From positions 1-61,015 of the forward strand of contig JAWOBX010000095.1 in NCBI GenBank assembly GCA_046484125.1: a DNA stretch of 61,015 nt, written 5' to 3'. The DNA is from Dehalococcoidia bacterium (lineage in GTDB: Bacteria; Chloroflexota; Dehalococcoidia; SZUA-161; SpSt-899). Both the position numbers and the translations under genes were made by a program. The notes beneath the pieces are model-generated. The model was not told the DNA's origin and ran no database searches. It saw only the letters and a list, made by a program, of their open reading frames with translations. How positions within the stretch are numbered: the first letter of the stretch is position 1; every line of letters begins with the position of its first letter. Below are positions 387 through 37,279 of this stretch, piece after piece.

Positions 387-1583
387 TTACCCTTTCATCA
401 AACCCCTCTCCTCCGCCACGCAGCGTACGCCACCCGCATCCATAGCCGCAATACATCTGTTACAATGATCGCAATCCGACCCGGATATTTCACCGGATTG
501 CAGTCTTTTTACAAAGTCGGCATCCCTCACGGTGGCCCTTCCTATCTCAATGAACTCAAATCCTTCATCCATAACTCTTTCCATATCATAGAGCGAGAGC
601 ACTCCACCAATATAGATTACCGGAATCTTCAATGCCTCTTTAAATCTGCGGGCCCCCTCCAGCAGGAAAGTCGGTTCGAAGGGATATTCCTCAACCATAA
701 AGCGCCCGAATAATATGAGTCCCAGCCTGAGCACCGGATTACTCTGATTCCTGGCCATATCGGCGGAAGGTACATTTCCCCTCATCATGTATAAAGGTGT
801 CCTCGCCGTGAACCCGCAACTCGGTATAACCGCTCCGGCCCCCGAAGCCTCGAAAATCCGCGCAACCTCGACCGCCTCATCTAGTTCCAGTCCGCCTTTA
901 AATCCGTCGCGCTGATTCATTTTGACCATAATGGGGAAATCGGGGCCCACTATCTCTCTTGTTCGCTTTATTACAGACGCCGGAAACCGTGCCCTGTTCT
1001 CCAGCGAGCCCCCGTACCGGTCTTTCCGATGATTTGTCCAGGGTGAAAGGAACTGGCTCAACAGGTAGCCATGGCCGGAATGAATCTCCACGGCATCGAA
1101 CCCCGCTTCCTTCGCCAATCCCGCGGCCCTGGCAAAATCCTCGATTTTACCCTCTATCTGGCCCTCTGTCATCTCTTTGCAGATTGACATGCGAAAAAGG
1201 CAGAACTTGCGCGAGGCCCCGATTGGTCTCGTTCCTATTTCACTGCGGCTGGCGAAAAAACCGCAGTGGCCTAACTGTATTGAGGCTTTAGCACCTTCAT
1301 CATGCACGGCGTCTGTAAGCCGCCTCAGGTCAGTTAAAACCTCTTCCCTCATCCATAGCTCGTGGCCGAAGGCCCTCCCGTCAAATGTCACTGAACAATA
1401 TGCCACTGTAGTCATCGCGACCCCCCCTTCAGCCACCCTCCGGTGATGCTCAATCAGTCCATCCGTTACCATTCCCTCCTGGCAAAGCCCTTCGAAGCAC
1501 CCGGACCTGATTATACGATTCCTCAACCTCAACCCGTCTATTGCCCCCGCGGTAAATACCCGGCTTTTCACCTCAGTACTCAC
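387..1583 (-). CDS. OYE-family NADH:flavin oxidoreductase, short type with C-terminal Cys cluster; candidate 3-oxo-5beta-steroid delta4-dehydrogenase/5beta-reductase
   Basis: LRNRIIRS, EIHSGHGYLLSQFLSP, YGGSLENRARF and CDHCNRC motifs. Start moved to GTG 1583 (AGGAG upstream) from the ORF-track 1739. Confidence 0.85.
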   Translation of the reverse strand: MSTEVKSRVFTAGAIDGLRLRNRIIRSGCFEGLCQEGMVTDGLIEHHRRVAEGGVAMTTVAYCSVTFDGRAFGHELWMREEVLTDLRRLTDAVHDEGAKASIQLGHCGFFASRSEIGTRPIGASRKFCLFRMSICKEMTEGQIEGKIEDFARAAGLAKEAGFDAVEIHSGHGYLLSQFLSPWTNHRKDRYGGSLENRARFPASVIKRTREIVGPDFPIMVKMNQRDGFKGGLELDEAVEVARIFEASGAGAVIPSCGFTARTPLYMMRGNVPSADMARNQSNPVLRLGLILFGRFMVEEYPFEPTFLLEGARRFKEALKIPVIYIGGVLSLYDMERVMDEGFEFIEIGRATVRDADFVKRLQSGEISGSDCDHCNRCIAAMDAGGVRCVAEERGLMKG

Positions 1584-1632
1584 TGGCTTGCTCCTTTTCT
1601 GCAGTTTAGGTTGGCCGCTTAACCGTAACTCT

Positions 1633-1794
1633 TCCGATTGGTTCTTATGGTAGATTTGTTCGATGCGAATTTCAACCCTGTTAACTAATCGTAAGTATAC
1701 TGAAAAAAGCCTCACCTGTAATCCTATAGAATCCCTCACGGAGAATAATATGTCCTAATGGTTCATTTCTAACGATTTATATGAACCAATTGGC
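1633..1794. promoter_or_regulatory. Three copies of a candidate operator GAACCAWWNGG in the divergent promoter region
   Basis: 1633-1645 (rc AGAACCAATCGGA), 1753-1765 (rc TGAACCATTAGGA), 1782-1794 (TGAACCAATTGGC). Confidence 0.5.
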
Positions 1795-1936: not shown

Positions 1937-2572
1937 ATGGGTGTACTAGAAGATATCTCCAAAGCTGTCGAGGAACTGGAAAAAGAAAAAGCTCTTTCCC
2001 TGGTGCGGCAGGCCATTGACGAAGGGGTTGATCCGCCCAAGATAATTCAGGCTGGTATCGTGCCCGGATTGCAGGGTGTGGGTAAAAAGTTCGAGGCGGA
2101 GGAGTACTTCCTCGCCGAGTTGATGATGGGAGGCAAAGTCTCTCAGGCATGCATCGACCTGGTAACCCCTCATCTCCCGGACACCACGGGGAGCAAAGCC
2201 GGAACAGTGGTAATCGGCGCTGTAGAGGGCGATCTGCACGATATTGGCTACGGGCTCGTTGCCACTCAACTTGAACTCAATGGTTTCGAGGTTCACAAGC
2301 TGGGAGTCAACCTGCCGGCGATGACCTTTATCGATAAAGCGAAGGAGCACAACGCGGATATAATCGGCCTGTCCGCATTTCTGGTAACCACCATTCCCAA
2401 CTGCAATGAGGTCATTAACTACCTCAGAGATATGGGGCTTAAGGATAAATACAAGGTGATAATAGGTGGAACGGAAACCAGCCAGGAAAAAGCGGATGCG
2501 ATGGGCGCTGATGGCTGGGCCCCCAACGCCGTGGAAGCGGTCAAATTGTGCCAGCGACTTATGGGCCGCTAG
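1937..2572 (+). CDS. Corrinoid (B12-binding) methyltransferase cognate protein, MtmC/EmtB/AbeB-like
   Basis: Cap domain (GKKFEAEEYFLAELM) plus the B12 motif EGDLHDIG...IGLSAF...VIIGG. Confidence 0.95.
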   Translation: MGVLEDISKAVEELEKEKALSLVRQAIDEGVDPPKIIQAGIVPGLQGVGKKFEAEEYFLAELMMGGKVSQACIDLVTPHLPDTTGSKAGTVVIGAVEGDLHDIGYGLVATQLELNGFEVHKLGVNLPAMTFIDKAKEHNADIIGLSAFLVTTIPNCNEVINYLRDMGLKDKYKVIIGGTETSQEKADAMGADGWAPNAVEAVKLCQRLMGR

Positions 2573-2605: not shown

Positions 2606-3946
2606 ATGATCCCCATTATCGAGTTCCAGGAACGGGCTTTAAACGGCCCGGTAATGAAGAGTGATGAGTTTGATTTAGAATTCTCTATGAAAATCCGCGA
2701 ACTGGTCAAGAAATACAACATTGAATATAACGAGAATGAACTGGTAGTAGACGATGACACGGCTGACGCGGTATACCAGGCAGCGGTTGAACTTCTGGCC
2801 GAAGTCGGTATCTACCATATGGATACCGAACGGGTAATCAAGCTTACCAGAGAAGAGATCGAAGAGGTTGCGGGGGAATACCGGGGGAACCCCGGCCGTC
2901 ATACGTTCGGCAAAGGCAAGGACCAGGTGACAGTTGAATACCGGGCCAGCACGGATAAGAGGCCGCCCACTTTGTATGCCGGCTCGTGGGGAGTGGCGAA
3001 AGAGGAATGGTACAAACCTTATATAAAATCCTTCGTCCAGGAAGAAGCCATAGAGGCGATGGGAATAACCGCCGGTTTGGCCAATCTGGGTAACGTGAGG
3101 GCAAAGGCCGGAACTCCCAGCGAGGTCATCGTCGGGCTCTGGGAAAACGAGAGCGTAAAAGAGGTGGTCGAGGAGGTGGGAAGACCGGGGATGCATCTTG
3201 GATTGCTGGCCACACTTAGCAGCGCCGGTGGCATCATGACCGTAGTAGGAGCAGGCTTCCGGGACGCGCACAACACCCAGATCGGCGTTCATATCATACC
3301 GGAGATGAAGATAAGCTGGAGCCAGTTCGTTCTCGCCCATTATTGCCAGTTGCGGGGAATTCAGCCATGGCAGAGCTCAATGTCGATGATCGGAGGCCTT
3401 TGCCGTAATGCCGCGGACGCGGCGGTTGGATTGACAGCGAACCTGCTTGGCCAGCTTTCCTACGCTCAAGGCCAGTTGTGCAGCCTGTTCACCAATCATA
3501 TGGACGGAAAATCGGCCACCAAGCCGACACATTGGGCATTCAGCGCGGCCGCCCGTGCTTCTGAGCGAAATATAAAAGTGTGTATCGGCGGATGCGCTGC
3601 CGGCGTCCTCTGCAAGTCGCCGTTCACCCTGATTCAAGCTGTAAATATGGCCAGTCTGTTCACCGCCAGCGGTATGTCCTACTGCTGGATAGCGGGGAAT
3701 ACAGGCATAGAGGCCCGGTACACAGGTGAGGTAATGAACGCCATAGCGGGTATGGAGCGAGAGCAGGCCAATGAGCTGATTAATAACATGATGGAACTGC
3801 AACAAAAGTACGCTCCCGAGGTCAAAGGCAATACCTGTAAATTCCCGGATGTGTATGACCTGGAAACAGTCAAACCACACGGATGGTATGTTGACTACAT
3901 TGAAAAGGCAAAGGAGGAACTTGCAAGCTGCGGAGTTCCCTACTAA
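2606..3946 (+). CDS. MtmB-family substrate:corrinoid methyltransferase, non-pyrrolysine, paralog 1
   Basis: GIYHMDTERVIK, GRPGM, PEMKI, TGIEARY and YDLETVKP match recalled MtmB motifs. No in-frame TAG. Confidence 0.9.
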   Translation: MIPIIEFQERALNGPVMKSDEFDLEFSMKIRELVKKYNIEYNENELVVDDDTADAVYQAAVELLAEVGIYHMDTERVIKLTREEIEEVAGEYRGNPGRHTFGKGKDQVTVEYRASTDKRPPTLYAGSWGVAKEEWYKPYIKSFVQEEAIEAMGITAGLANLGNVRAKAGTPSEVIVGLWENESVKEVVEEVGRPGMHLGLLATLSSAGGIMTVVGAGFRDAHNTQIGVHIIPEMKISWSQFVLAHYCQLRGIQPWQSSMSMIGGLCRNAADAAVGLTANLLGQLSYAQGQLCSLFTNHMDGKSATKPTHWAFSAAARASERNIKVCIGGCAAGVLCKSPFTLIQAVNMASLFTASGMSYCWIAGNTGIEARYTGEVMNAIAGMEREQANELINNMMELQQKYAPEVKGNTCKFPDVYDLETVKPHGWYVDYIEKAKEELASCGVPY

Positions 3947-3977: not shown

Positions 3978-4781
3978 ATGCTGATTATCGGAGAATCCCT
4001 CAACGCCACTATTCCATCTGTTCGGCAGGCAGTCATTGAACACGATGAAAACAAGATTGCCTCTCTCGCGCGCACTCAGGCGGAGTGTGGGGCAAATATG
4101 CTTGACGTCAACGCCGCTGTACCAGAGCAGGACGAGGTCGAGAATCTGAGATGGATGGTTAAAACGGTGCAGAGGGCGACCGACCTGCCCCTGGTTCTGG
4201 ACAGCTCAGATCCACGGGCAATCGAGGCGGCACTGGAAATCTACAGGGGGCCACCCCCAATCCTTAACTCCATAACCGGGGAGATGACCGAGGGACATCA
4301 CCACCTCCTCGAACTCGCTGTCATGAACGGCTGCGGATTGGTTGTTATGTGCATGGATGAGACAGGGATTTCCCCCGACGCGGAAGTCAGGTTCTCCATA
4401 GCGGTGAAATTGTTCGAACGGGCCAGAGCCGCCGGACTCAGTCCTGAGAAAGTCTATGTAGACCCCCTCGTTATGGCCATAGGTGCTGATTACACCGCGG
4501 GCGCAACCTCCCTTCATGTCCTGCGCCTCATTCAGGAACGTTTGCCACAGGTGTACACGTTCTGTGGTGCCAGCAATATCAGCTGGGGAATGCCCATGCG
4601 CAGACTACTCAATCGAACCATGATCTCCATGCAGGTTTCACTGGGAATGCACGCTTTTCTCGTTGATGTGCGTGATAGCAAATTGATGTCCACGCTGATT
4701 GCGGCAAAGGCGCTCATCGGTCAGGATGAGTGGGGAATGGAGTACATAAGAGCCTATCGGACCGGGAGACTCAACGCCTGA
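3978..4781 (+). CDS. Methyltetrahydrofolate:corrinoid methyltransferase (pterin-binding, AcsE/AbeC-like)
   Basis: MLIIGESLNA, LDVN, PLVLDSSD, ILNS, VDPLV and GASNISWGMP motifs. Start at ATG 3978. Confidence 0.92.
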   Translation: MLIIGESLNATIPSVRQAVIEHDENKIASLARTQAECGANMLDVNAAVPEQDEVENLRWMVKTVQRATDLPLVLDSSDPRAIEAALEIYRGPPPILNSITGEMTEGHHHLLELAVMNGCGLVVMCMDETGISPDAEVRFSIAVKLFERARAAGLSPEKVYVDPLVMAIGADYTAGATSLHVLRLIQERLPQVYTFCGASNISWGMPMRRLLNRTMISMQVSLGMHAFLVDVRDSKLMSTLIAAKALIGQDEWGMEYIRAYRTGRLNA

Positions 4782-5407
4782 TGAGAACAGGATTAATCGT
4801 TTGCGGAGCACTGGGCCGTGAGGTAAAGAACATAGTGCGCAAGCACAGGTGGAATGCATCCATTCTCGGAGTGCCACCCCTCAATCATATGTATCCGCTC
4901 CGTATAGCTCCCGATGTAGAGAGGCGAATCCTGAAACTTCGGGCTGATTGTGATAACATAGCTGTCGTTTACGGTGAATGCGGCACGAGAGGAACCCTTG
5001 ATGAGGTTCTCAATAGATACGGGGCAAAGCGAATCGACGCACAGAATTGCTATGAAATGTATGCCGGAGAGATGTATCAGGAGTTGCTGGAAGAGGAGAG
5101 AGGAACTTTCTTTCTCACGGATTTCCTGGTCCGCACTTTTCACCGAGCCGTCATCGAAGGGCTGGGGCTGGATCGTTTTCCCGAGTTAAAAACTGACTAT
5201 TTCCATAATTGCAGGAGAATCGTTTACCTGGTTCAGAGAAGAGACCCCGAGCTATTGAGACGCGCGGAATCGATCTCTGAGTATATCGATGTTCCGCTGC
5301 AGGTTTACGATACGGGACTTAAGAACCTTGAGGACCGGCTCACAGACCTTTTTAGCAGGCTGCGCTTGGGTTCAACCGAAAACAGGCAGAGAATCCTCTC
5401 ATTCTGA
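4781..5407 (+). CDS. DUF1638 family protein
   Basis: IVCGALGRE, VVYGECGT, NCYEMY and TFFLTDFL motifs. ATG 4781 overlaps the previous TGA. Confidence 0.8.
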   Translation: MRTGLIVCGALGREVKNIVRKHRWNASILGVPPLNHMYPLRIAPDVERRILKLRADCDNIAVVYGECGTRGTLDEVLNRYGAKRIDAQNCYEMYAGEMYQELLEEERGTFFLTDFLVRTFHRAVIEGLGLDRFPELKTDYFHNCRRIVYLVQRRDPELLRRAESISEYIDVPLQVYDTGLKNLEDRLTDLFSRLRLGSTENRQRILSF

Positions 5408-5533: not shown

Positions 5534-7192
5534 ATGGCAGACAAACCTCAGACATGGGATATCGAATGCGATTTCATCGCTGTCGGCTCCGGTATAGGCG
5601 GACTTACGGGCGCCATTATTGCCCATGACATCGGCCTGAAAACAGTGATACTGGAGAAGGCTCCCAAGCTCGGCGGCGTCTCAGCACTCTCAGGAGGTGA
5701 GATCTGGGTTCCCAACAACCACGTAATGAAGCGCCAGGGTATAAAGGATACGCGCGACGAGGCAAAACAGTACCTCGACTTCCTGTCAGGAGGGTTTGCC
5801 GAGCCGGAACTGGCCGAAATATTTCTTGACACAGCGCCGGTAGTTTGCGAGTACATGGAGGAGAAAGCAGGCGTTCGCTGGAAAACAATCCCCGATTTCG
5901 CTGATTATTTCTATCCCCATGCTCAGGGAGCGTTGAGAGAGGGGCGATACCTCGAAACCGAGATATTCAAGGGTTCCGACCTGGGAGAGTGGGAGTCACT
6001 GTCGCGCCTGACCCCTCATATGCCCTGTGGAATTACCGCCGAGGAGATGTTTAACTGGGGTGGCGGCGCATGCATGCTCAAATGGGATTTCGCGTTACTG
6101 GGCGAGAGGATGTCCGAGGGTTATCGCACCTTTGGCCCGGGAATGATGGCCTATTTCATCAAGGCAGCAGTTTTAGATAGACAAATCCCGGCGTATCTTA
6201 ATACCGGTGTAAAAGAGCTGGTGATGGATAACAATCGTGTTGTCGGCGTGCGCGCCGAACAGGACGGAAAGGATATCTGGATCGGTGCCCGTAAGGGTGT
6301 GCTCCTCTGTATGGGAGGGTATGACTGGAATGAAGAACTGGCCAGATATTACGAACAGATGCCGGAGTTGCGTTCCGCCTGTCCGCCCCAAATCGAGGGC
6401 GATCACCTGATATTCGGCTGTGAAATCGGAGCACAGGTAGCTGTTATTCCAGTGGGAACACTGGCGACCATGTTTGGCTACAACGTACCCAGCGAGGAGG
6501 CGGAAGGCAAGCCTCTGTGGCGATTATCCGCGGAAGGTGGTTATCCTCACGCAATCTGGGTTAATAAATACGGCCAGAGGTTCTGCGATGAATCCTTCTA
6601 TCCGCAATACTCACCGACTCCGCACATCTGGGATGGCAACCGGAAAGAGCATACCAACTTTCCGGTATATATGATCTTCGATCAGAACCATCGCGATAAA
6701 TATCCCATCGGCCATTTCGCGCCTGGAACAGAACTCCCCGAGGAAATGGTCAAGAGCGCCCCCACACTGAGGGAACTGGCCGGGATTATGGGAATCGACG
6801 CCGAAGGGCTGGAGGCATCGGTCACGCGCTTCAACGGTTTTTGTAAGGACGGTGTCGATAAGGATTTCGGTAAAGGGCAGTATCCGTGGGCCAACTTCAT
6901 GACCGGAGACCTTACCAATCAGCCGAATCCCAATATGGGGCCACTGGAGAAGCCGCCTTACTATTGCCTCAAGTTAACGATCAACTCCGTCGGCATTGAC
7001 TCCGCCGGCCTGAAAACCAATACCAACGGGGAAGTAATCCACGTACGAGGACGTCCGATAGCCGGCCTTTACGCGGCTGGTAACACGGCGGCAGCGCTGG
7101 ATACCGGCGCCGGGTATCAGAGTGGATTCGCCTGCACTCGTGGGATGGTGTGGTCATATATCGCCGCCAGGCACGCTGCCGGCAGACAGTAA
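5534..7192 (+). CDS. FAD-dependent 3-ketosteroid dehydrogenase family protein; candidate delta4-(5alpha) type
   Basis: VGSGIGG, GGVSALSGGEIWVPNN, RFCDES, GLYAAGN and C-terminal GYQSG. Confidence 0.8.
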   Translation: MADKPQTWDIECDFIAVGSGIGGLTGAIIAHDIGLKTVILEKAPKLGGVSALSGGEIWVPNNHVMKRQGIKDTRDEAKQYLDFLSGGFAEPELAEIFLDTAPVVCEYMEEKAGVRWKTIPDFADYFYPHAQGALREGRYLETEIFKGSDLGEWESLSRLTPHMPCGITAEEMFNWGGGACMLKWDFALLGERMSEGYRTFGPGMMAYFIKAAVLDRQIPAYLNTGVKELVMDNNRVVGVRAEQDGKDIWIGARKGVLLCMGGYDWNEELARYYEQMPELRSACPPQIEGDHLIFGCEIGAQVAVIPVGTLATMFGYNVPSEEAEGKPLWRLSAEGGYPHAIWVNKYGQRFCDESFYPQYSPTPHIWDGNRKEHTNFPVYMIFDQNHRDKYPIGHFAPGTELPEEMVKSAPTLRELAGIMGIDAEGLEASVTRFNGFCKDGVDKDFGKGQYPWANFMTGDLTNQPNPNMGPLEKPPYYCLKLTINSVGIDSAGLKTNTNGEVIHVRGRPIAGLYAAGNTAAALDTGAGYQSGFACTRGMVWSYIAARHAAGRQ

Positions 7193-7264: not shown

Positions 7265-8911
7265 ATGGCCAATATGCCCGATAAATGGGACCTTGAAACC
7301 GACATTCTGGTTATGGGTACGGGAGGATCCGGTTTGGTTGCCGCTATAGTGGCACACGACCAGGGATCTCGAGTGAGCGTAATCGAAAAGGCCGGCACTG
7401 TGGGAGGCGCAACGGCCGTTTCCGGCGGCTTCCCCTGGATACCCAACAACCACCTGGAAAAGGAACTGGGATTCGATGATTCCAGGGAGGACGCACTTAC
7501 GTATATGAAATTCATCGCCCAGAGACAGGTAGACGACTCTCTTCTCGAGGCGTTTGTCGACAACGGTCCGGAGATGATCAAGTACATCGAGGATAATGCC
7601 GGGCTCCGATTCACTGTATCAGAAATGCCCGATTATCACGATACCAGGCCGGGGGGGAAATCCAGAGGCCGGAGCCTCGGCCCGCCGGCATTCGACTCCA
7701 ATGAGCTCGGCGAGTGGAAGAACCGTTTGCGTCAGGCGCCGGTGGTCATCTTCCCCATGTCCTGGGAAGACTATGAGAAAAGCAACGCAAAAGCGGACCC
7801 CAGGAACCTGGATTATCGCGTGCTAGCAGAGAACATGATGAAGGGCATAGTGGGGATGGGCATGGCCACGATAGGCTATCTTCTTAAGGCCTGCCTCGAC
7901 CGCGGTATTGAGCCCCTTATGGAGACCCCCGGGCGTGAATTGATCCAGGATAATGGGCGTGTCGTCGGTATACGGGCGGAACGAGAGGGCAGGGATTTTT
8001 ACATTCGCGTCGGACAGGGCGTTATTCTCGCCTCCGGTGGTTTCGAGTGGAGCGAAGAGCTGAAGAAGCAGTTCATCCCCAGTCCATGGGTATGCCCGTT
8101 AAGTCCACCAAGCAATGAGGGCGACGGTTTGAGAATGGCTATGGCAATTGGTGCCGATCTCGGCAATATGCACCAGGTCTGGGGAGTGCCCTCGGTCATG
8201 ATCCCGGGAGAGGAATACGAGGGAAAACCCCTCGGTCGAATGACGATGGGTGAGCGGGCGCTTCCTCACGTAATAATGGTAAATCGTAAGGGCAAGCGTT
8301 TCGTGGACGAATCATTCAACTACAGCGACGTGGCTAAAACCTACTGCGATATAGATCCGGTGGAATACGACCACCGCAACCTTCCTTCGTGGTGCGTCTT
8401 CGATCAACAGTTCAAGGATAAGTACATGGTGCTCACCAGCGCGCCTGGCGAGCCCGCTCAGGAATGGATGACTCAGGCTGATACACTGGAAGAGCTGGCC
8501 GAAAAAGCGGGTATCGACGCCGATAACCTCAAGGAGACGGTGAATAAATTCAATGAATATGCCGGACAGGGAGTCGACCCTGAATTCAATCGGGGAAGCA
8601 CTGCCTATGATAGATACATGGGCGATCCGAACCACGGTCCGAATCCAGCTCTTGGCGCCATTGAGAAACCTCCATTCTATGCTATGTCCGTGATAAGAGG
8701 CGCTCTCGGTTCGAAAGGAGGGCCAATGACCAACGCCAGCGGCCAGGTGCTTCATGTTATGGGTGGAGTGGTTGAAGGCCTCTATGCCGCGGGCAATGTT
8801 ATGGCCGCTACCAGCGGACCCGGATATGGTGGGGCCGGAAATACCATCGGGGCGGGGATGACCTGGGGCTATATAGCCGCCAGACACGCCTCCAAACAGG
8901 ATAAGAAATAG
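7265..8911 (+). CDS. kstD: 3-ketosteroid delta1-dehydrogenase-like flavoprotein
   Basis: GGATAVSGGFPWIPNN, MPDY, RFVDESFNY, LGSKGG and GYGGAGNTIG; all three KstD Tyr positions appear retained. Confidence 0.8.
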   Translation: MANMPDKWDLETDILVMGTGGSGLVAAIVAHDQGSRVSVIEKAGTVGGATAVSGGFPWIPNNHLEKELGFDDSREDALTYMKFIAQRQVDDSLLEAFVDNGPEMIKYIEDNAGLRFTVSEMPDYHDTRPGGKSRGRSLGPPAFDSNELGEWKNRLRQAPVVIFPMSWEDYEKSNAKADPRNLDYRVLAENMMKGIVGMGMATIGYLLKACLDRGIEPLMETPGRELIQDNGRVVGIRAEREGRDFYIRVGQGVILASGGFEWSEELKKQFIPSPWVCPLSPPSNEGDGLRMAMAIGADLGNMHQVWGVPSVMIPGEEYEGKPLGRMTMGERALPHVIMVNRKGKRFVDESFNYSDVAKTYCDIDPVEYDHRNLPSWCVFDQQFKDKYMVLTSAPGEPAQEWMTQADTLEELAEKAGIDADNLKETVNKFNEYAGQGVDPEFNRGSTAYDRYMGDPNHGPNPALGAIEKPPFYAMSVIRGALGSKGGPMTNASGQVLHVMGGVVEGLYAAGNVMAATSGPGYGGAGNTIGAGMTWGYIAARHASKQDKK

Positions 8912-8932: not shown

Positions 8933-9385
8933 ATGCCTGAAGTCGAACATATGGAAATAGTCAAAGCTCCCCTCCCTACCTCATGGGAATTCTGCAGGGA
9001 TATGAACAACTGGGTCCAGTTTCTGAAAGGCTATCAGAAGCATGAGGAAAAGAACGAATGGGACTCTGTGTGGTGGATCAAAGGTGATGTTGGCATTCTG
9101 GCCCGCACTGTTTCCTTCGAGGTACACATTGACGAATGGATTGAACAGGAAAGCGTCACCTTTTCCATGAAAGGTATCAGCGAGTCGATGACGGGGAAAG
9201 GCGCGCTGCGAATGGAGGCGGCCGACAACAATACCACCAAATTGACTTTTTACCTGGAGGTCAAAGCGGGCGGACTGATAGGGCCCATGGTTAACGCGGT
9301 ACTGGGACCGGTGCTCAAACCAATAGCTGATGATTTCGCGGCAAAACTCAAGGCCAGACTCGAGGAAATAGCATCACAGTCCTGA
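8933..9385 (+). CDS. SRPBCC/CoxG (START-like) ligand-binding protein
   Basis: 150 aa with WEFCRDMNNW...KGDVG and a C-terminal helix after GGLIGPMVN, typical of CoxG/SRPBCC. Confidence 0.8.
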   Translation: MPEVEHMEIVKAPLPTSWEFCRDMNNWVQFLKGYQKHEEKNEWDSVWWIKGDVGILARTVSFEVHIDEWIEQESVTFSMKGISESMTGKGALRMEAADNNTTKLTFYLEVKAGGLIGPMVNAVLGPVLKPIADDFAAKLKARLEEIASQS

Positions 9386-9489: not shown

Positions 9490-11553
9490 ATGTCAAGTTT
9501 TGATAAACTGTTCAGCCCAATCCAAATCGGGAACATGGAAATCAAGAACCGGATAGTCATGTCCCCGATGACAACTCTGTTCGCCAATATGAAGGAGCAG
9601 ATAACGGATCTGGCCCTTGACTACTATGTCGCACGAGCCAGAGGAGGCACAGGCCTCATCACTGTGGAAGCCTGTACGATTGATCGCCCACACAACTATC
9701 AGTTCAAATCCCTGGGCCTGTGGGACGATAAGTTCATAGCCAGGCACAAAGAACTGACCGACGCTGTTCACGCTCATGACACGAAACTGATCCCGCAAAT
9801 CACTCATCCGGGCCCGGAGTCGCGAGCCCCTATACTTTTCAAGCAACCCGCAGTCGGCCCCTCTTCGGTTCAGTCCGAAATGACCGATGAGATATGCAAG
9901 GAACTCACTATAGAAGAAATCGAAGAGGTTATCGAAAAATATGGTGACGCGGCCAGACGCGCAAGAGAAGCCGGCTATGATGGAATGCAGCTTCATGCCG
10001 CCCACAGCTATATGCTGGCCGGATCCTTCCTGTCACCGCATCGCAACAAGCGAACAGACAAGTACGGCGGTTCGCTGGAAAACCGGGTCCGGTTCGTCCA
10101 GGAAGTCCTGGCAAACATTAGAGCCAAGGCTGGCGATGATTTCCCGATAGATATTCGGATATCCGGAGAAGAACGCATACCCGATGGGAACGATCTTCAG
10201 GACACACTCCGCATGGTCCCGCTGCTCGTGGAGGCAGGTGTCGATTCATTCCACGTTTCCGGGGGTGCAATCGATAAACTCGTCACCATGATCGAGGCCG
10301 GTCCGGAATATCCTCTCGGTTTCAATGTGTCTGCTGCCGCCGCAATCAAGAAGACAGTGGATGTTCCCGTAATGGTCGTTGGTCGAATTAAAGACCCCTA
10401 CCAGGCTGAGGAAATACTTCAGAAAAACGAAGCTGATATGATCGTTATGGGGCGCGGGTTGCTGGCCGATCCGGAATGGCCCAATAAAGCCAGGGCCGGA
10501 AAGGCGGATGAAATACGCAAATGCATCTCCTGCCTGAATTGCTTCGATTCCCAGGCTATGCTGGAAGGACTCAGTTGCTCGGTTAATGGCGTGCTGGGCT
10601 ATGAGAACGTAGAAGAATACCAGTTGAAACCGGCACCCAAATCAAAGAGCGTGATTATCATCGGTGGAGGCCCGGCCGGAATGGAAGCTGCCCGTGTCGC
10701 TTCTATCAGAGGTCATAAGGTCTCCCTGTACGATAAGCTTCCACGGCTGGGGGGCTCCGCCATCCTGGCGTCGATGGTTCACCCGGATAATGAGGATTTC
10801 ATCAACTTCCTGATTACACAGATGAAGAAACTGGGAGTGACAGTAAAATTAAAGCAGGAAATGACCCCTGAGATGATCACCGCCCTCAAGCCTGATGTGG
10901 TTATAATCGCGGTAGGGCCTTCTCTGGTAACTACGAGGATACCCGGAGATGAGCAGCGTCACGTCCTCAGCGCCCCCGATCTCAAAGCGGTCATGGCCGG
11001 TAATCTCAGTGGCCCGGGAGCGGCAAAACTGCCTGCCTCAATTAAAATGGGATTGCGTCTGGCCCGGCCATTTATGCCACGTCTGATGAAACCATCCACC
11101 ATACGAAGCTTGACCAAAACCTGGATGCCCGTCGGAAAACGAGTAGTTGTCATCGGAGGTGATCTGGCCGGCTGCGAACTGGCGCAGTTCCTGGGCGAAC
11201 ATGGTCGAAAGGTGACTCTGCTGGAAACCGGAGATACAATTGCCCCTGAAGTCGGTCCCAAACGGCGGGACAATCTGCAGGGCTTTCTAAATAGAGCCGG
11301 CGTGACCGTTTTCACTCAGGTGACACCAAAAGAGATCACCCGCAATACCGTTACCTTCGAGTCCGGCGATGGGAACTCTCAGGCCGTTGAAGCGGATAGC
11401 GTCATTGTCGCTGGTGAAGCCGAGTCGAACACGGGCATGTATGAGGCTCTGGAAGGCAAGGTCCCTGAAGTTTACACGATTGGTGATTGTGCCGCAATCG
11501 GACTGATCCGAAAAGCCACGGCAACAGCGATGGGTGTTGCGATCAAGATATAG
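9490..11553 (+). CDS. BaiH-like FMN/FAD/Fe-S NAD(P)H-dependent oxidoreductase (OYE plus FAD domain), copy 1
   Basis: PQITHPGPES, LHAAHSYMLAGSFLSP, RISGEE, CISCLNC...C and GGGPAG motifs. Confidence 0.88.
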   Translation: MSSFDKLFSPIQIGNMEIKNRIVMSPMTTLFANMKEQITDLALDYYVARARGGTGLITVEACTIDRPHNYQFKSLGLWDDKFIARHKELTDAVHAHDTKLIPQITHPGPESRAPILFKQPAVGPSSVQSEMTDEICKELTIEEIEEVIEKYGDAARRAREAGYDGMQLHAAHSYMLAGSFLSPHRNKRTDKYGGSLENRVRFVQEVLANIRAKAGDDFPIDIRISGEERIPDGNDLQDTLRMVPLLVEAGVDSFHVSGGAIDKLVTMIEAGPEYPLGFNVSAAAAIKKTVDVPVMVVGRIKDPYQAEEILQKNEADMIVMGRGLLADPEWPNKARAGKADEIRKCISCLNCFDSQAMLEGLSCSVNGVLGYENVEEYQLKPAPKSKSVIIIGGGPAGMEAARVASIRGHKVSLYDKLPRLGGSAILASMVHPDNEDFINFLITQMKKLGVTVKLKQEMTPEMITALKPDVVIIAVGPSLVTTRIPGDEQRHVLSAPDLKAVMAGNLSGPGAAKLPASIKMGLRLARPFMPRLMKPSTIRSLTKTWMPVGKRVVVIGGDLAGCELAQFLGEHGRKVTLLETGDTIAPEVGPKRRDNLQGFLNRAGVTVFTQVTPKEITRNTVTFESGDGNSQAVEADSVIVAGEAESNTGMYEALEGKVPEVYTIGDCAAIGLIRKATATAMGVAIKI

Positions 11554-11696: not shown

Positions 11697-13652
11697 GTGA
11701 CCTCACTGACAAGCTTGTTCAGTCCTGTCCGAATCGGCTCGATGGAGCTGAACAACCGCATCGTAATGTCCACCATCTCTACGGGTGACTACTGCAACCG
11801 CGATGGCACCGTATCCGAGAAGCTCATCGGATATCTTGAAGCCCGGGCCAGGGGCGGTGTCGGGCTTATCAATACGGAACCTGTTACCATTGGGGAAAAG
11901 CTTCCATATACACCAAGAACCCTCGGAATCTGGGACGACAGGTTCATTCCCGGTTTACGACGGTTGACCGATATCCTGCACTCCCATGGTGCAAAGGTTC
12001 AGCCCCAGCTAATGCATCCGGGCCCCGAATCGCTGTCCCCTTTCTTCCATAAAACTCCCGCTAAGGGCCCATCTCCGGTCATATGCCACACCACCAAACA
12101 GGTATGCCATGAGATGACCCGAGACGAGATCGACGAGGCAGTCAAGCTGTTTGGAGAAGGAGCCAGGCGAGTCAGGGAGGCCGGTTTCGACGGAGTGGAG
12201 TTACACGCGGCCCACAGCTATATGCTCGTGGGTTCTTTTCTTTCCCCTCTACGTAACCGGAGGGCAGATGAGTACGGGGGGTCAATCGAAGGCAGGCTCC
12301 GTCTCCTCCTCGAGGTGATTGACAGTATAAAACAATCGGCCGGAAGCGACTTCCCCCTTACGTTGCGGATCTCCGGTGATGAGTTGACGCCCGGGGGGAA
12401 TACTATCAATGATATGCAGCATATCGCCCCAATACTGGTTGAGGCCGGAGTCCACGCCTTCCACGTTTCGGCGGGAGCTTTTCCCAACTGGCGAATCATA
12501 GCGCCCACAGGGACGCCTTACGGATTAAATGTCGCTTTTTCCGCCGCACTTAAGGAAGTGATCGATGTGCCGGTTATGACGGTTGGCAGGATCAACGATC
12601 CGCGGCTGGCCGAAACAATTCTGCGCCGAAAACAGGCCGATCTGATCGTAATGGGCCGGGCGTTACTGGCCGATCCGGAACTCCCCCTGAAGGCCATGGA
12701 AGGCCGGTTCGATGATATAGCCCCCTGCATCTCCTGTCTGCTGGGATGCCGAGGAGTGACACCGGGAATGGCCATGACCTGTGTGGTCAATCCTGCTCTC
12801 GGTAGAGAACAGGAGATGACCATTACGCCTGCCACCGAGCCCAGGAAGGTGATGGTAGTAGGAGCCGGCCCCGGCGGGCTGGAAACCGCCAGGGTGGCGG
12901 CGTTGAGGGGTCATCAAGTAGATCTCTATGAAAAAGAGCAGCGAATCGGCGGTCAGTTTAACCTCGCAGCCGTACCGCCCATGAAACAGGAACTGGTCAA
13001 AGTACTCCGCTACCTGTCGATACAGGCGGAGAAAGCGGGGGCCAACATTCGGTTGAATACAGAGGTAACTCCGGAAATCATCGCGGAAGCCGGTCCGGAT
13101 GTTCTGGTCATCGCTACCGGTGGGGTACCCCTGATTCCGGATATCCCCGGGATTGATGGCGAAAAAGTGATAACCGCCCATGATGTTCTGGCCGGAAAAC
13201 TGGCTATCCACGGGTCCGATGTGCTGGTGATCGGCGGCGGGATGGTTGGCTGCGAAACCGCCGAGTTTCTGGCCAACAGGGGGGATAATCCCCTTATCGG
13301 GCGCACTCGCGTTACTATCGTTGAGATGCTCGATGATGTGGCAAAAGACCTCGCGCCTGAAAACCGTTCCCTGCTGATGCAAAACCTTCGCGAGGCGGGT
13401 GTCACCATCATCACCTCAGCCAGAGTCAGGGAAATCCTCGAGGACGGTGTAATCATTGAAAAAGACGGTCAGGAATCATCCCTCCGTCCCCTTGACTATA
13501 TCGTGTTAGCAATGGGCGCGAAATCATATAATCCGTTCGGTAACGAGATCATGGGAAAAGCGAAGGAAGTACATGTCATCGGTGATGCCGCAAATCCGTG
13601 CAGGGCACTTGAGGCAATTGCCGATGGTGCGAGAGTGGGCAGAGAGATTTAG
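11697..13652 (+). CDS. BaiH-like OYE/FAD oxidoreductase, copy 2
   Basis: PQLMHPGPES, LHAAHSYMLVGSFLSPLRN, RISGDE, CISCLLGC and GAGPGG motifs. Confidence 0.9.
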   Translation: MTSLTSLFSPVRIGSMELNNRIVMSTISTGDYCNRDGTVSEKLIGYLEARARGGVGLINTEPVTIGEKLPYTPRTLGIWDDRFIPGLRRLTDILHSHGAKVQPQLMHPGPESLSPFFHKTPAKGPSPVICHTTKQVCHEMTRDEIDEAVKLFGEGARRVREAGFDGVELHAAHSYMLVGSFLSPLRNRRADEYGGSIEGRLRLLLEVIDSIKQSAGSDFPLTLRISGDELTPGGNTINDMQHIAPILVEAGVHAFHVSAGAFPNWRIIAPTGTPYGLNVAFSAALKEVIDVPVMTVGRINDPRLAETILRRKQADLIVMGRALLADPELPLKAMEGRFDDIAPCISCLLGCRGVTPGMAMTCVVNPALGREQEMTITPATEPRKVMVVGAGPGGLETARVAALRGHQVDLYEKEQRIGGQFNLAAVPPMKQELVKVLRYLSIQAEKAGANIRLNTEVTPEIIAEAGPDVLVIATGGVPLIPDIPGIDGEKVITAHDVLAGKLAIHGSDVLVIGGGMVGCETAEFLANRGDNPLIGRTRVTIVEMLDDVAKDLAPENRSLLMQNLREAGVTIITSARVREILEDGVIIEKDGQESSLRPLDYIVLAMGAKSYNPFGNEIMGKAKEVHVIGDAANPCRALEAIADGARVGREI

Positions 13653-13773: not shown

Positions 13774-14013
13774 ATGCAAATATCAATAGAGACGTCAAGT
13801 TGCACCGGTTGCCTGCGGTGCGCTCTGGCATGTTCGTTCTTCACCTCAGGTCATAAGGCCTTTAACCCCTTTCAGTCCAAAATTCAAATCTCACCAGCGA
13901 TAGATGATGAAGGATATGACATCTCGTTCACGCCGGAATGCAACGAATGTGGCCTGTGTGTGAAATATTGCGTGTTTGGTGCGCTGCACGGAAACGGGGG
14001 GCAATATGAGTAA
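13774..14013 (+). CDS. 2x[4Fe-4S] ferredoxin, likely AOR partner
   Basis: CTGCLRCALAC and CNECGLCVKYC. Confidence 0.9.
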   Translation: MQISIETSSCTGCLRCALACSFFTSGHKAFNPFQSKIQISPAIDDEGYDISFTPECNECGLCVKYCVFGALHGNGGQYE

Positions 14014-15886
14014 CCTCGGGGGATATGCCGGTAATATTTTAACAGTTGATCTGAGTTCGGGGCGGATATCCTCGGCAACTCTTTCACAGGATCTCGCGGT
14101 CCGGTTCATTGGCGGGGCTGGTTTGAACGCCCGTTTGGCCTATGACCAGATCGTAGCTGGAACCCCGGCGTTATCGCCGGAGGTACCGATGATTCTGGGG
14201 GCCGGGCCGCTCGTTGGCACACTCGCTCCTTTAGCATCGCGCACTAACATCACCTCTAAGTCCCCGCTCTCCGGGTACATAGGGTCTTCCGGAGCCGGAC
14301 ATATGGGCGCCTTGAAATTCTGTGGATACGATCACCTTATCATAACCGGCAAAGCTGAAAAGCCGGTAATTCTGGAAGTCGGAGACGAGGTGAGGATCAG
14401 TCCGGCGAGCCATCTGTGGGGCAAAGATACCTGGGAAACAACCGAGTCTATACGTGATGACCTGGGAAGACAGCGCTCGATCGCCGCCATCGGACCGGCA
14501 GGTGAGAATCAAGTGGGGACTGCCTCAATTCTGGTCGATAAAAAGGCGGCTTACGGCAAGACAGGCTTAGGGGCCGTGATGGGCTCTAAAAACCTCAAGG
14601 CTATAGTTCTCTCAGGCACCAGAGGTGTTACCGTCGCCGAACCCAATCGGTTTATCAAACTGGTTAACGATTTAACCGGCCAAATAACCGGCACCCCGGG
14701 CCTGGAGTATTTCCAGAAGCTGGGCATCATGACGATGTACCAGGACATGCTTGCCGCGAAAGGTAAAACATTTCCCTTCAAAAACGGGCTGGAGATCCTT
14801 GATACGGAAAACACGCCTAATCTCGATATGAAGCAGTTATGGCAAATGTTGTCGCAGTCTCGTAATATCAGTTGCCTTTCCTGTCCGATAGGATGCAAGA
14901 ACTCTGTAACGATCTCGGAGGGTCCTTACTCCGGTTTGAGTATGATCGTGGGCTGCTTCGGGCCTTCAACCGGGGGATTTGGCGGTCTCTGCGGCCTTGA
15001 AGGATGGGATGAGATGGTTAAGTGCAGTGAGATATGCAACCGTCTGGGAATGGATTACAGCTCGGCCGGACTCATCTCAATGGCCATAGAGCTATATCAG
15101 AATGGGATTATAAGTAAAAGTGACACCGATGGAATGGAACTGGACTGGCACCAACCGGAAATGGTTCATGATCTGCTTTATAAGATCGCCCATCGGGAGG
15201 GATTTGGTGCCATCCTGGCCGACGGCTCCCTGGCGGCACAGAAACGCATCGGTACCGCCGCGGAAGGATATTCGGTTCATTATAAAGGGCAAATAGATAC
15301 AGCAGGAGCCGATCCCCGTCCCTCATTTGCGACATGGACACGGAGCCTGATTACCAGTCCGGTCGGCCAGGCGCTCCCTTTGAATGAAATCCACCACCTT
15401 CCACCTGAAAAAATAGAGGGTATGCTTCGTTACCAGGGCATACCTGATACGGATATAAAACGCGTTCTGTCCACAATGGAGAGCTGCAATTCCGGAGAGT
15501 TAACCCGATGCAGCGAGAACTACATTTTCGCGCTGGAGTGCCTTGGACTGTGCGCCTTCTGGAGCCAGATGTTTGGCATCGATACCTGGGCGGAGGTATA
15601 TTCAACCGCCACCGGCATCGATATGGATGGACCCGGCCTGTTAGAAGCCGCCGCCCGCGGCATCGATATGAGAAGGGCATTCAACGTCAGGGAGGGAGCC
15701 GGCAGGAAGGACGATACCGTCCCGAAACGGTTTATGTCGGAACCGGTAAAGGTTTATGGGGAAACCCGGCCACCCTTTGATAGCAAACAACTCGACGATG
15801 AAGTGACAGGATATTATATAGCCCGGGGATGGAACTTGCCGGAAGGTACAGTAAGCAGTGAGAGGCTGGCTGAACTTTTGAAGTAG
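14006..15886 (+). CDS. Aldehyde:ferredoxin oxidoreductase (W-AOR family)
   Basis: GYAGNILTVDLS, AIGPAGEN, GLGAVMGSKNLKAI, CLSCPIGC and LGMD motifs. Start at ATG 14006. Confidence 0.92.
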   Translation: MSNLGGYAGNILTVDLSSGRISSATLSQDLAVRFIGGAGLNARLAYDQIVAGTPALSPEVPMILGAGPLVGTLAPLASRTNITSKSPLSGYIGSSGAGHMGALKFCGYDHLIITGKAEKPVILEVGDEVRISPASHLWGKDTWETTESIRDDLGRQRSIAAIGPAGENQVGTASILVDKKAAYGKTGLGAVMGSKNLKAIVLSGTRGVTVAEPNRFIKLVNDLTGQITGTPGLEYFQKLGIMTMYQDMLAAKGKTFPFKNGLEILDTENTPNLDMKQLWQMLSQSRNISCLSCPIGCKNSVTISEGPYSGLSMIVGCFGPSTGGFGGLCGLEGWDEMVKCSEICNRLGMDYSSAGLISMAIELYQNGIISKSDTDGMELDWHQPEMVHDLLYKIAHREGFGAILADGSLAAQKRIGTAAEGYSVHYKGQIDTAGADPRPSFATWTRSLITSPVGQALPLNEIHHLPPEKIEGMLRYQGIPDTDIKRVLSTMESCNSGELTRCSENYIFALECLGLCAFWSQMFGIDTWAEVYSTATGIDMDGPGLLEAAARGIDMRRAFNVREGAGRKDDTVPKRFMSEPVKVYGETRPPFDSKQLDDEVTGYYIARGWNLPEGTVSSERLAELLK

Positions 15887-17476: not shown

Positions 17477-18667
17477 ATGACAAATGAGTCCAAACTGGAA
17501 CAGATAAGGAAGATGGTGTATTCATGCGTTCAGTGCGGGTACTGCCGTGAAAAATACTCGGACGAAGTCTTTACCACGCTGATCGCCTACCGCGTCTGCC
17601 CCATCAGGGAGCACACCGCTGGTTTTGAGCATCATTGCGCTCGCGGAAAGATAAAGATCGCCCAGGGCATCCTTGAGGGCCGGTTCGACTACACTGATGA
17701 GCTCATTAATTTGCTCTATACCGATCCTGACTGCAAATTATGTTCCTGGATATGCCACGCCGAACCGATGCTGGATCCGGTCAGGATATGGCTGGCCATG
17801 CGTCAGGATATCGTTGCGGCGGGACTCGGTCCCCCGGAACCGCTAAAGCAAATAGACAATCGTGTTTCACAGAAACACAACGTATTCGGAGCCATACAGG
17901 AGCGGAGGGCCCGATGGGCTGCCGATCTCGATCTTCCCCGTAACGGAGACACTGTATACTTCGCCGGTTGTCACGCGTCGTATCCCAAGAGTGAAATTGC
18001 CCGGTCAACAGTGGCGATTTTGAGGAAAGCCGGAATCGATGTGGCGTATCTCGGTGAAGATGAATGGTGCTGCGGCGTGGTACAGTTTCATGACGGGTCA
18101 ATCGATATCGCGGAGGAACTGGCCAGGCATAACGTGGAATCTATCAGCAACAGTGGCGCCCGCCGGGTGGTAACCGGCTGTGCCGAATGCTATAAATCCC
18201 TTAAACTGGAATATCCGGCCCTTGTGGGCGAACTGCCGTTTGAAGTAGTTCATACCAGCGAGCTTTTCGCGGAATTGATCGACTCCGGAAAACTGGAACT
18301 GAAGGAGGGGCTCGATGAAAGGAAGATCACCTATCACGACCCCTGCCAGATGGGCCGATATTGCCAGGTATACGATCCTCCAAGAGAGATTTTAAAGCGC
18401 ATCCCGGGGATTGAATTGATCGAAATGCTGAGACATCACGGCAACGCCTGGTGTTGCGGCAATGGGGCGGACATGGTGCGGTCTATGGATGGCGACCTCG
18501 CCAGGGAAATCGCCATGGATCGGTTAACCGAGGCTAATGAGGCCGGTGCTGAAGCTATAGTGACCGCCTGTCCCCGGTGTGTAGAGAGCTTTGAGCGGGT
18601 TGCCGAAGGAATGAAGGTATATGACCTGTCCGTGGTAACCGCTCGAGCGCTTTCCATTGGAACCTGA
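17477..18667 (+). CDS. Fe-S oxidoreductase with two CCG domains (GlcF/HdrD-like)
   Basis: CVQCGYC, YFAGC, EWCCG, TYHDPC, WCCG and VTACPRC motifs. Confidence 0.9.
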   Translation: MTNESKLEQIRKMVYSCVQCGYCREKYSDEVFTTLIAYRVCPIREHTAGFEHHCARGKIKIAQGILEGRFDYTDELINLLYTDPDCKLCSWICHAEPMLDPVRIWLAMRQDIVAAGLGPPEPLKQIDNRVSQKHNVFGAIQERRARWAADLDLPRNGDTVYFAGCHASYPKSEIARSTVAILRKAGIDVAYLGEDEWCCGVVQFHDGSIDIAEELARHNVESISNSGARRVVTGCAECYKSLKLEYPALVGELPFEVVHTSELFAELIDSGKLELKEGLDERKITYHDPCQMGRYCQVYDPPREILKRIPGIELIEMLRHHGNAWCCGNGADMVRSMDGDLAREIAMDRLTEANEAGAEAIVTACPRCVESFERVAEGMKVYDLSVVTARALSIGT

Positions 18668-20704: not shown

Positions 20705-22054
20705 ATGATTCCCATCATTGATTTCCAGAAGCGTTCGCTGAACGGCCCGGTCATGAAGGCAGATGAATTCGACCTTCATTTTTCGAAGACAGTTCGTGAA
20801 CTGGTAGCCAGGTATGAGATCAAGTACAATCCGGAGGAGCTGATCGTAGACGACAGAACCGCCGATGCCGTCTTCCAGGCTGGCGTGGAACTACTGGCTG
20901 ATGTGGGACTGTATCATATCGGTACGGAACGTGTGGTACAGTTCACAAAAGAAGAGGTGGAGCGGATTGCCCGCGAATATCATGATAATCCACGTAAACA
21001 GAAGTTCGGCCGCGGGAAGGACGAGGTTACTATCGAGTATCGAACAGGATCTGATAAGCGTCCCCCCGTCATGTACGCCGGGTCGGCGGGAGTTGCGGAG
21101 GAAGACTGGTATATACCTATGATCAAATCATTTGCCCAGGAGGAGTCGGTCAAGGCAATGGGCATAACTCCGGGCCTGGCTAAACTGGGTGATATCGAGC
21201 CAAAAGCGGGAACCCTCAGCGAAGTTTATGTATCCCAGTGGGAACAAAAGCAATTGAAAGAAGCTCTCCGCCAGGTGGGGAGGCCTGATATGCACTGTGG
21301 CCTGCTTGCTACAGTCAGCACTGTTGGCGGCACCCTGGCCATGATCGGGCCGGGACTCCGTGAAGCCCATAATACGCAAATTGGCGTCCATATCATTCCG
21401 GAACAGAAGCTCGACTGGGCCAGACTGGTTCTCTCCCAGTACTGTCAGGATCGAGGCATACAGCCGTGGCAAAGTTCCATGTCAATGATTGGAGGGCTTT
21501 GCCGTGATGCGGCGGATACCGCGGTGGGACTGGTGGCGAATCTGCTGGGTCAGTTAGCTTATGCTCAAGGGAACCTTTGCAGCCTTTTCACCAATCATAT
21601 GGACGGAAAATGGGCAACCCGGCCCGCGCTATGGGCGTACAGTGCCGCCGCCCGTGCCTCTGAGAGAAACATCAAGGTCTGTATCGGTGGGGTAGCGATA
21701 AGCGCCATAGAAGCATGGAAAACCAGAGAGCAGATAATGCACGCAACCGCCAACGCGATTGTGAACAGCGCCAGCGGTATGGCCTATTGCTGGATCGCCG
21801 GATTGACCGGCTTTGAGGCGCGTCTGATAGCGGAAGCAATGGAGGTCACCGCCGGAATGACCAGAGAAAAAGTCAACCAGTTATCACAGTCCATCCTCAC
21901 CGAAGTATACGCAAATATGAACACCGAACCGGTTCTTGACACACCGTTTCCTGAATCCTGTGATTTGCAGACATCCTTACCACTACCCGAATATGAAGCC
22001 ACCATACTGAAGGGCAAGGACGAACTGGCACGCCTGGGCGTGCCCTATCATTAA
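20705..22054 (+). CDS. MtmB-family substrate:corrinoid methyltransferase, non-pyrrolysine, paralog 2
   Basis: Collinear with 2606..3946 (MIPII.FQ, AHNTQIGVHIIPE, QPWQSSMSMIGGLCR, SLFTNHMDGK). No in-frame TAG. Confidence 0.9.
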   Translation: MIPIIDFQKRSLNGPVMKADEFDLHFSKTVRELVARYEIKYNPEELIVDDRTADAVFQAGVELLADVGLYHIGTERVVQFTKEEVERIAREYHDNPRKQKFGRGKDEVTIEYRTGSDKRPPVMYAGSAGVAEEDWYIPMIKSFAQEESVKAMGITPGLAKLGDIEPKAGTLSEVYVSQWEQKQLKEALRQVGRPDMHCGLLATVSTVGGTLAMIGPGLREAHNTQIGVHIIPEQKLDWARLVLSQYCQDRGIQPWQSSMSMIGGLCRDAADTAVGLVANLLGQLAYAQGNLCSLFTNHMDGKWATRPALWAYSAAARASERNIKVCIGGVAISAIEAWKTREQIMHATANAIVNSASGMAYCWIAGLTGFEARLIAEAMEVTAGMTREKVNQLSQSILTEVYANMNTEPVLDTPFPESCDLQTSLPLPEYEATILKGKDELARLGVPYH

Positions 22055-22881: not shown

Positions 22882-22947
22882 GAGAAATTCTCGGGAAAGC
22901 ATTGTTTTGTTGCATAATCAGTGCTGAACGTGAAAGGAGAGATAGTA

Positions 22948-31748: not shown

Positions 31749-31835
31749 GCCCGCATTGTTTTGATAAAATTTGCACTAACCCCGTACTTTGGAATAAACT
31801 CAATCTTAAGCAAACAACAGCCGGGAGGAAACGAC

Positions 31836-37238: not shown

Positions 37239-37279
37239 ACATCATTTCCCGATATCTGGACGAAAAGGAGTTAACAGAC

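Follow-up and report, generated by a model that had tools for sequence, protein, structure and literature searches.

The window analyzed here is the whole of contig JAWOBX010000095.1, 61,015 nucleotides of forward strand from a Dehalococcoidia bacterium (assembly GCA_046484125.1). It carries two genes, copy A (2606-3946, plus strand) and copy B (20705-22054, plus strand), whose products belong to the family of MtmB, the methylamine methyltransferase of methanogens that contains pyrrolysine (Pyl). Both are complete open reading frames (ORFs), of 446 and 449 codons, respectively, with zero in-frame stops under translation table 11. The proteins share 61% identity, and the MtmB family profile PF05369 covers nearly the full length of each (E-values of 1.9e-50 for copy A and 1.5e-46 for copy B). 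In copy A the segment that corresponds to the Pyl site of MtmB contains the motif GRPGMHLGLLAT, in which Gly199 is encoded by GGA at 3200-3202, as confirmed in the raw bases; in copy B the motif is GRPDMHCGLLAT, and Gly199 is encoded by GGC at 21299-21301. Direct translation of positions 3179-3220 gives GRPGMHLGLLATLS, and that of positions 21278-21319 gives GRPDMHCGLLATVS. The MtmB crystal structures (PDB 1L2Q and 1NTH) read GRPGMGV-X-GPETSLS, where X is Pyl, and all 12 archaeal mtmB genes in a set gathered with a TAG-containing pattern read GRPGMGV-TAG-GPET, with TAG as codon 202.

An earlier note on this DNA, made from the sequence alone, had reported the strings and coordinates of both paralogs exactly and had given the MtmB motif, GRPGMGV-Pyl-GPETS, correctly. 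It had also proposed that neither protein uses pyrrolysine, which agrees with the two open reading frames and with the genome background: no PylS or PylD scored above cut-off in the 2.68-Mb genome bin, which is 93.7% complete, while a Methanosarcina acetivorans control was positive.

Comparison of a model with the MtmB structure, a check that the earlier note had suggested, confirmed the MtmB fold. Copy A was the one of the two window proteins that was modeled. The top Foldseek match of its AlphaFold model was 1NTH, with a TM score of 0.91, and alignment with VIA gave a Z score of 50.3 and a root-mean-square deviation of 1.9 Å over 439 aligned residues, at only 22-23% identity. The nearest genome-encoded relatives come from metagenome-assembled genomes (MAGs) of Dehalococcoidia, at 82-85% identity. 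Among characterized proteins we compared them with AbeA, described as the MT1 component of a cobalamin-dependent system, AbeABC, that converts 1-dehydrotestosterone to estradiol by removing the C-19 methyl group (PMC11912376). Identity between the window proteins and the four abeA loci of Phosphitispora sp. TUW77 (CP156677) is 46-48% by tblastn and 48-50% by blastp, with copy A at about 48% and copy B at 48-50%. A FastTree phylogeny of 132 sequences, rooted on the 12 Pyl-containing MtmB proteins, placed both window proteins, three other paralogs of the same genome, and the TUW77 AbeA proteins in one clade. The published account names Chloroflexota MAG bin164 as the closest AbeA relative (PMC11912376), and the bin.164 MAG is among the loci recovered here (L026, L030, L039, and L067, in our numbering of recovered loci). 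The emtA gene, too, is described as having no Pyl codon (bioRxiv 10.1101/714501; PMC7448270). Judged by their sequences, we assign both genes to the AbeA/EmtA lineage of MT1 proteins, a Pyl-free branch of the MtmB TIM-barrel family. Three points weigh against too close an identification: the identity stays below 50% to AbeA, the only characterized relatives compared; the FastTree topology was read without support values; and no Denitratisoma or Steroidobacter record appeared among the best 80 loci of either of two scans, one with a family alignment and one with an AbeA-centered alignment.

The glycine is a fixed feature of this lineage. The close family, 124 proteins comprising the best 120 of 301 hits of a word-indexed search and four proteins of this genome, has Gly at position 199 in every member (124/124), Leu at 200 in 123, Leu at 201 in 120, and Thr at 203 in all 124. 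In a second set, taken from fetched genome loci (86 full-length homologs, that is, 91 hmmsearch hits minus five shorter than 400 residues), Gly is found in 85, and the remaining sequence has an alignment gap at this column. Since Gly occupies the position in 124 of 124 close family members and 85 of 86 genome-encoded homologs, we regard the pattern in these sequences as beyond chance. The same position in AbeA, which the earlier note had singled out for comparison, is also Gly: the motif is GRPN[IM]HLGLIPT at the four TUW77 abeA loci, and all five TUW77 copies read GRP[NH][IML]HLGLIPT.

We also considered Gly199 as a signature of the steroid-acting clade and rejected it. Sister lineages without known function likewise have Gly at the Pyl column in the tree, and across 123 non-Pyl members of the superfamily (122 representatives of clusters at 50% identity plus the sequence P0120) the column contains Gly in 24, Leu in 18, Val in 13, and Ile in 9, with other residues in the rest. 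Gly is therefore simply the commonest residue at a variable, indel-prone column, and the view that it is specific to steroid-type enzymes did not hold. What the clade of the window proteins and TUW77 AbeA does share is the longer segment G-L-[LI]-x-T.

The alignments are divided on whether Gly199 takes the place of Pyl202, as the earlier note had claimed. Three MAFFT L-INS-i runs (136, 75, and 161 sequences, the first being the 124 AbeA-like and 12 Pyl-MtmB sequences and the last including the 122 wider-superfamily representatives) all left the site ungapped, with Gly199 in the Pyl column. In these runs Thr203 of the AbeA-like proteins (124/124) is aligned with Thr206 of Pyl-MtmB (12/12). In contrast, phmmer comparison with PDB entries 1L2Q and 1TV2 placed a gap opposite Pyl and paired Gly199 with Gly203, and hhalign of profiles built from the 124 AbeA-like and 11 Pyl-MtmB sequences introduced the same gap, with Gly199 again opposite Gly203. 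Both programs thus set GRPGMHL-GLLAT over GRPGMGVXGPETS, as would be expected if Pyl had been deleted and not substituted, leaving its position empty and the strand one residue shorter. The region is rich in indels, 42 of the 123 non-Pyl superfamily sequences have Gly one column after that of Pyl, and by these criteria Gly199 could be the evolutionary counterpart of Gly203. The strand at Gly199 is indeed shorter in the copy A model (200-201) than in MtmB (200-203), and the models suggest that the local backbone near Gly199 may differ from that of MtmB. All of these observations count against a simple replacement.

As a proxy with which to arbitrate between the alignments, we used the DSSP strings of two AlphaFold models, that of copy A (pLDDT, the model confidence score, 96.5) and that of a Pyl-MtmB read with TAG as Lys (pLDDT 97.3). 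Copy A has a helix at 171-191, a strand at 200-201, a helix at 207-213, an 11-residue loop, and a strand at 225-227; the corresponding elements of the MtmB model are a helix at 174-193, a strand at 200-203, a helix at 210-215, an 11-residue loop, and a strand at 227-231. The numbering offset is 3 on both sides of the site, at GRPGM before it and at the start of the next helix after it (207 versus 210). A deletion would demand an offset of 4 and two compensating residues in copy A before Lys235, yet the loops are equal in length, and it would break the match between Thr203 and Thr206, each invariant in its own group. What is more, the bridging homolog P0144, which reads GRPGMLLGFPET, retains P-E-T and aligns without a gap, its Gly falling in the Pyl column. 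Because the offset is 3 on both sides, the loops are equal, and P0144 aligns ungapped, the models and alignments favor Gly199 as the structural equivalent of Pyl202 on the barrel strand; loss of the residue by deletion, which would leave Gly199 directly beside the gap, appears less likely. No side chain stands in for pyrrolysine under either alignment.

The difference from MtmB extends well beyond one position. Several residues that are invariant in the 12 Pyl-MtmB proteins are altered across the 124 AbeA-like sequences: Glu205 becomes Ala, Cys, or Ser; Glu229 becomes Gln or His; Glu259 becomes Ser in all 124; and the run Asn332-Gln333-Tyr334-Tyr335 becomes Gly or Ser, then Val, Cys, or Ser, then Ala, then Ala or Ser. 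We take several of these residues to be pyrrolysine contacts in the MtmB structure. Trp361 and His229 are invariant in the AbeA-like group. We looked at His197 as a candidate catalytic acid and set it aside, as it is not invariant (His in 87, Asn in 30, Ser in 6, and Cys in 1 of the 124). The residue swaps would be consistent with a larger, less polar pocket, and we infer that the Gly199 segment together with the lost polar residues may have turned a methylamine-activating site into one for a large, apolar substrate. The earlier note had ascribed a pocket for a bulky substrate to the glycine and the two leucines that follow it. Membership in the AbeA lineage and the clade-invariant G-L-L segment agree with that view, while the remodeling clearly exceeds a single residue and the enlargement itself is a prediction from sequence.

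Copy A lies in a tight plus-strand operon in which a corrinoid protein gene, the MT1 gene, an MT2 gene, a DUF1638 gene, and two genes for KstD-like flavoproteins follow one another, with a gene for an SRPBCC-type protein after them. The corrinoid protein (1937-2572, plus strand) has the Pfam domains B12-binding and B12-binding_2, resembles AbeB, and is 61% identical to the corrinoid protein adjacent to AbeA in TUW77; it matches the NCBIfam family of methyltransferase cognate corrinoid proteins below the equivalog cut-offs. Copy A itself (2606-3946) is identified as a Pyl-free methyltransferase of the MtmB fold by PF05369, by the AlphaFold model and its match to 1NTH, and by the GL[LI]xT segment of its clade. 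The MT2 gene (3978-4781, plus strand) encodes an AbeC-like methyl-tetrahydrofolate (THF):corrinoid methyltransferase with a Pfam Pterin_bind domain, 45-46% identical to the TUW77 MT2 and scoring 284.6 bits against NCBIfam NF005719, above the cut-off of 259; its likely start is Met44 of an ORF that opens at 3849. The DUF1638 protein (4730-5407, plus strand; PF07796, E-value 7.6e-24) has its likely start at 4781, where it overlaps the MT2 stop codon. A DUF1638 gene directly follows MT2 in all four of the Dehalococcoidia operons examined (L018, L020, L024, and L039), and around the TUW77 abeA genes no homolog was seen out to 6 kb; the protein may be a lineage-specific accessory, for example in corrinoid activation.

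The two flavin adenine dinucleotide-binding flavoproteins at 5534-7192 and 7265-8911 (both plus strand) have 3-oxosteroid 1-dehydrogenases as their best PDB matches: 7P18 for the first (E-value 6e-70), and 7P18 (1.3e-96) and 4C3X (2.3e-74) for the second. Their scores against the NCBIfam 3-ketosteroid-delta-1-dehydrogenase (KstD) model are 375 and 487.5 bits, below the cut-off of 789. The small SRPBCC/CoxG-like protein at 8933-9385 (plus strand; Pfam COXG and Polyketide_cyc2), a possible binder of a hydrophobic ligand, is encoded after the second KstD gene also in L018, L020, L024, L039, and L042. Upstream of the operon, and divergent from it, is a gene for an OYE-type flavoprotein (387-1739, minus strand; PF00724) with 76%-identical syntenic homologs in L018 and L020; downstream are two BaiCD-like enoate reductases with OYE and Pyr_redox domains (9490-11553 and 11697-13652, plus strand), which score 492 and 556 bits against the NCBIfam BaiCD model (cut-off 825). 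Homologs of the latter two reductases, at 33-36% identity, flank the TUW77 abe loci. The whole copy A arrangement recurs in the Dehalococcoidia loci L018, L020, L024, and L039, and the genomic context is kept in at least eight Dehalococcoidia loci. An Rfam scan of the entire window (1-61015) gave 0 matches at the gathering score, and hence no cobalamin riboswitch before the corrinoid protein operon.

Copy B, an orphan AbeA-like methyltransferase gene recognized by PF05369, has no corrinoid protein or MT2 gene beside it. Directly upstream is another BaiCD-like enoate reductase (18720-20678, plus strand; 525.5 bits against the NCBIfam BaiCD cut-off of 825), syntenic in L030 and L033. Two short-chain dehydrogenases follow (22078-22881 and 22921-23748, plus strand; Pfam adh_short and adh_short_C2), syntenic in L030, L032, L033, and L037, and beyond them are genes for a CoA-transferase, a dehydrogenase, and an acyl-CoA dehydrogenase. 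The copy B arrangement is conserved in the same four loci, where its orthologs are single or in tandem, two to three at a time: three AbeA-like MT1 genes stand at its place in the Chloroflexota bin.164 MAG (L030, 5896-10089) and two in a Dehalococcoidia MAG (L032, 6001-8748). The genome encodes five MT1 paralogs in all, 57-69% identical to one another, and copy A is the only one that a corrinoid protein and an MT2 adjoin. A third paralog, on contig C111 (L001), adjoins a KstD-like gene whose product is 60% identical to the second KstD-like protein of the window. It is probable that copy B and the three further paralogs all use the corrinoid protein and MT2 encoded with copy A and act on different substrates. 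Of the Wood-Ljungdahl pathway, the genome has genes for FTHFS, an AcsB-type CdhC, and three MTHFR proteins, all above cut-off, and the genome encodes four corrinoid proteins.

The system that most resembles this one is AbeABC of TUW77. There, too, a Pyl-free MT1 of the MtmB fold has Gly at the same column; as at copy A, a corrinoid protein and a THF-type MT2 are adjacent and reductases of the OYE/Pyr_redox type flank the locus; and, as in this genome, several MT1 paralogs and Wood-Ljungdahl genes are present. AbeB and AbeC are described as carrying the methyl group to THF and on to the oxidative Wood-Ljungdahl pathway (PMC11912376). The two differ in gene order, which is corrinoid protein-MT1-MT2 in the window and MT2-corrinoid protein-MT1 in the TUW77 loci, and in the DUF1638 gene and the two KstD-like genes, which are part of the window operon and did not appear within 6 kb of any TUW77 locus. 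The hosts differ as well: TUW77 belongs to the Peptococcaceae, whereas the predicted system described here is from Dehalococcoidia (Chloroflexota).

EmtABCD of Denitratisoma spp. is likened to the window system through its published description, as an MtmB-related MT1 lineage with no Pyl codon; it differs in that the described reaction runs in reverse, depends on S-adenosylmethionine, and has no MT2 (bioRxiv 10.1101/714501; PMC7448270). MtmB of M. barkeri (1NTH, 1L2Q) shares with the window proteins the TIM barrel, GRPGM, the Thr at its position 206, H-x-D-G, and other motifs. It differs from them in its sequence, at 22-26% identity, in its UAG-encoded Pyl202, and in the polar residues Glu205, Glu229, Glu259, and Asn332-Tyr335, and the methyl acceptor is linked to coenzyme M in the MtmB system and to THF in that of the window. 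MtqB of Methanococcoides methylutens, likewise compared by published description, belongs to the MtmB superfamily, lacks Pyl, and has its own dedicated corrinoid protein; unlike the window proteins, it acts on a quaternary amine and comes from an archaeal host (PMC13044021).

Taken together, these comparisons lead us to a reading in which we have somewhat better than even confidence: both genes would encode MT1, the substrate-binding one of the three components of a cobalamin methyltransferase in the AbeA/EmtA lineage, with the former Pyl site remodeled to accept a substrate that is large and apolar. Our best guess is a bulky hydrophobic substrate, because the proteins belong to the AbeA lineage, which acts on steroid dienones, and by the same analogy the enzymes are likely to remove the C-19 methyl group of a steroid 1,4-dien-3-one. 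If the system works like AbeABC, a neighboring KstD-like flavoprotein would form the 1,4-dien-3-one in ring A, and aromatization of the ring would drive the transfer, by MT1, of the angular C-19 methyl group to Co(I) in the adjacent corrinoid protein. MT2 would then move the methyl group to THF, and the Wood-Ljungdahl gene products of the genome would oxidize it.

None of the KstD-like or BaiCD-like proteins reaches its NCBIfam equivalog cut-off, and the second KstD-like protein also matches 4-oxocyclohexanecarboxylate 2-dehydrogenase (445.5 bits, cut-off 1000), which leaves room for a ring substrate other than a steroid. Five divergent MT1 proteins, of which one has its partners beside it, are also typical of a set of several substrate-specific MT1s, and MtqB, another non-Pyl homolog of MtmB, is described as using tetramethylammonium or choline (PMC13044021). 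These points would suit a substrate other than an androgen, such as a longer-chain sterol or bile-acid dienone, a terpenoid cyclohexadienone, a methoxylated aromatic compound, or a quaternary amine as for MtqB. Against such substrates, the window proteins fall in the AbeA clade, carry its G-L-L/I-x-T segment, and have its types of flanking reductase, and the best PDB matches of both flavoproteins are steroid dehydrogenases. A cationic amine in particular would fit poorly, because the acidic residues that Pyl-MtmB proteins conserve have given way to neutral or small ones. On this evidence we regard a non-androgen substrate as a minority possibility, to be taken seriously.

A change of direction, in which the proteins would methylate estrogens to androgens as EmtAB does in the first step of estrogen catabolism, seems to us highly improbable. 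The case for it is the homology of EmtA to AbeA and the published description of the reaction as reversible in extracts (PMC7448270). The operon, however, contains a methyl-THF:corrinoid MT2 and the genome contains Wood-Ljungdahl genes, the two features that separate Abe-type from Emt-type organisms in the published account (PMC11912376), and emtC-like or emtD-like genes were not seen next to the MT1 genes.

The family, the type of reaction, and the existence of Chloroflexota homologs had already been published (PMC11912376), and the advance made here is incremental. Our literature search found no paper on what replaced pyrrolysine or on the structure or active site of EmtA or AbeA; nor did it find one that connects Dehalococcoidia with the AbeA/EmtA system. 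An invariant Gly in the Pyl column across the lineage, with other polar residues of Pyl-MtmB exchanged, gives positions for mutagenesis and for predicting substrate range. Dehalococcoidia MAGs conserve a full Abe-type operon joined with two KstD-like genes, and this adds a group that is dominant in anoxic sediments to the candidate hosts of estrogen formation without oxygen. Early-diagenetic monoaromatic steroids with an aromatic A or B ring have been attributed to low-temperature microbial reactions (PMC3783881). One may speculate, and we offer the idea as a long shot, that sediment Dehalococcoidia use diversified AbeA-like MT1 proteins to remove the angular methyl groups of a range of cyclohexadienones, steroid and perhaps also triterpenoid, and hand them to a single shared corrinoid protein and MT2 and from there to the Wood-Ljungdahl pathway. 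If that were so, anoxic sediments would have, in Dehalococcoidia, a biological source of steroids with an aromatic ring A, the steroid methyl group would be an energy substrate of the subsurface, and the remodeled Pyl site, centered on the glycine, would be the adaptable part of the pocket.

The wider surroundings of the two MT1 genes are rich in redox enzymes. A plus-strand block of 40 kb contains five OYE-type flavoproteins (387-1739 on the minus strand, 9490-11553, 11697-13652, 18720-20678, and 29823-31748), four of which have a Pyr_redox_2 domain; the three searched in NCBIfam had BaiCD as their best match, below cut-off. This density of enone reductases around two MT1 genes is unusual. 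The same block encodes two proteins of the aldehyde:ferredoxin oxidoreductase family (13976-15886 and 35310-37238), two molybdopterin oxidoreductases (27482-29701 and 33105-35291), a 4Fe-4S dicluster protein (31761-32408), and two HdrD-like proteins with CCG domains (17477-18667 and 37235-38098). Three TUW77 abe loci have homologs of the CCG-domain proteins, at 34% identity, some 4-5 kb downstream. Toward the far end of the window two NrpR-type regulators with NRD1_2 and HTH_12 domains (50595-51596 and 57891-58973, both minus strand) flank a region (52370-55494, minus strand) that encodes a glutamine synthetase, a P-II protein, and an ammonium transporter; NrpR is known mainly as the nitrogen repressor of methanogens.

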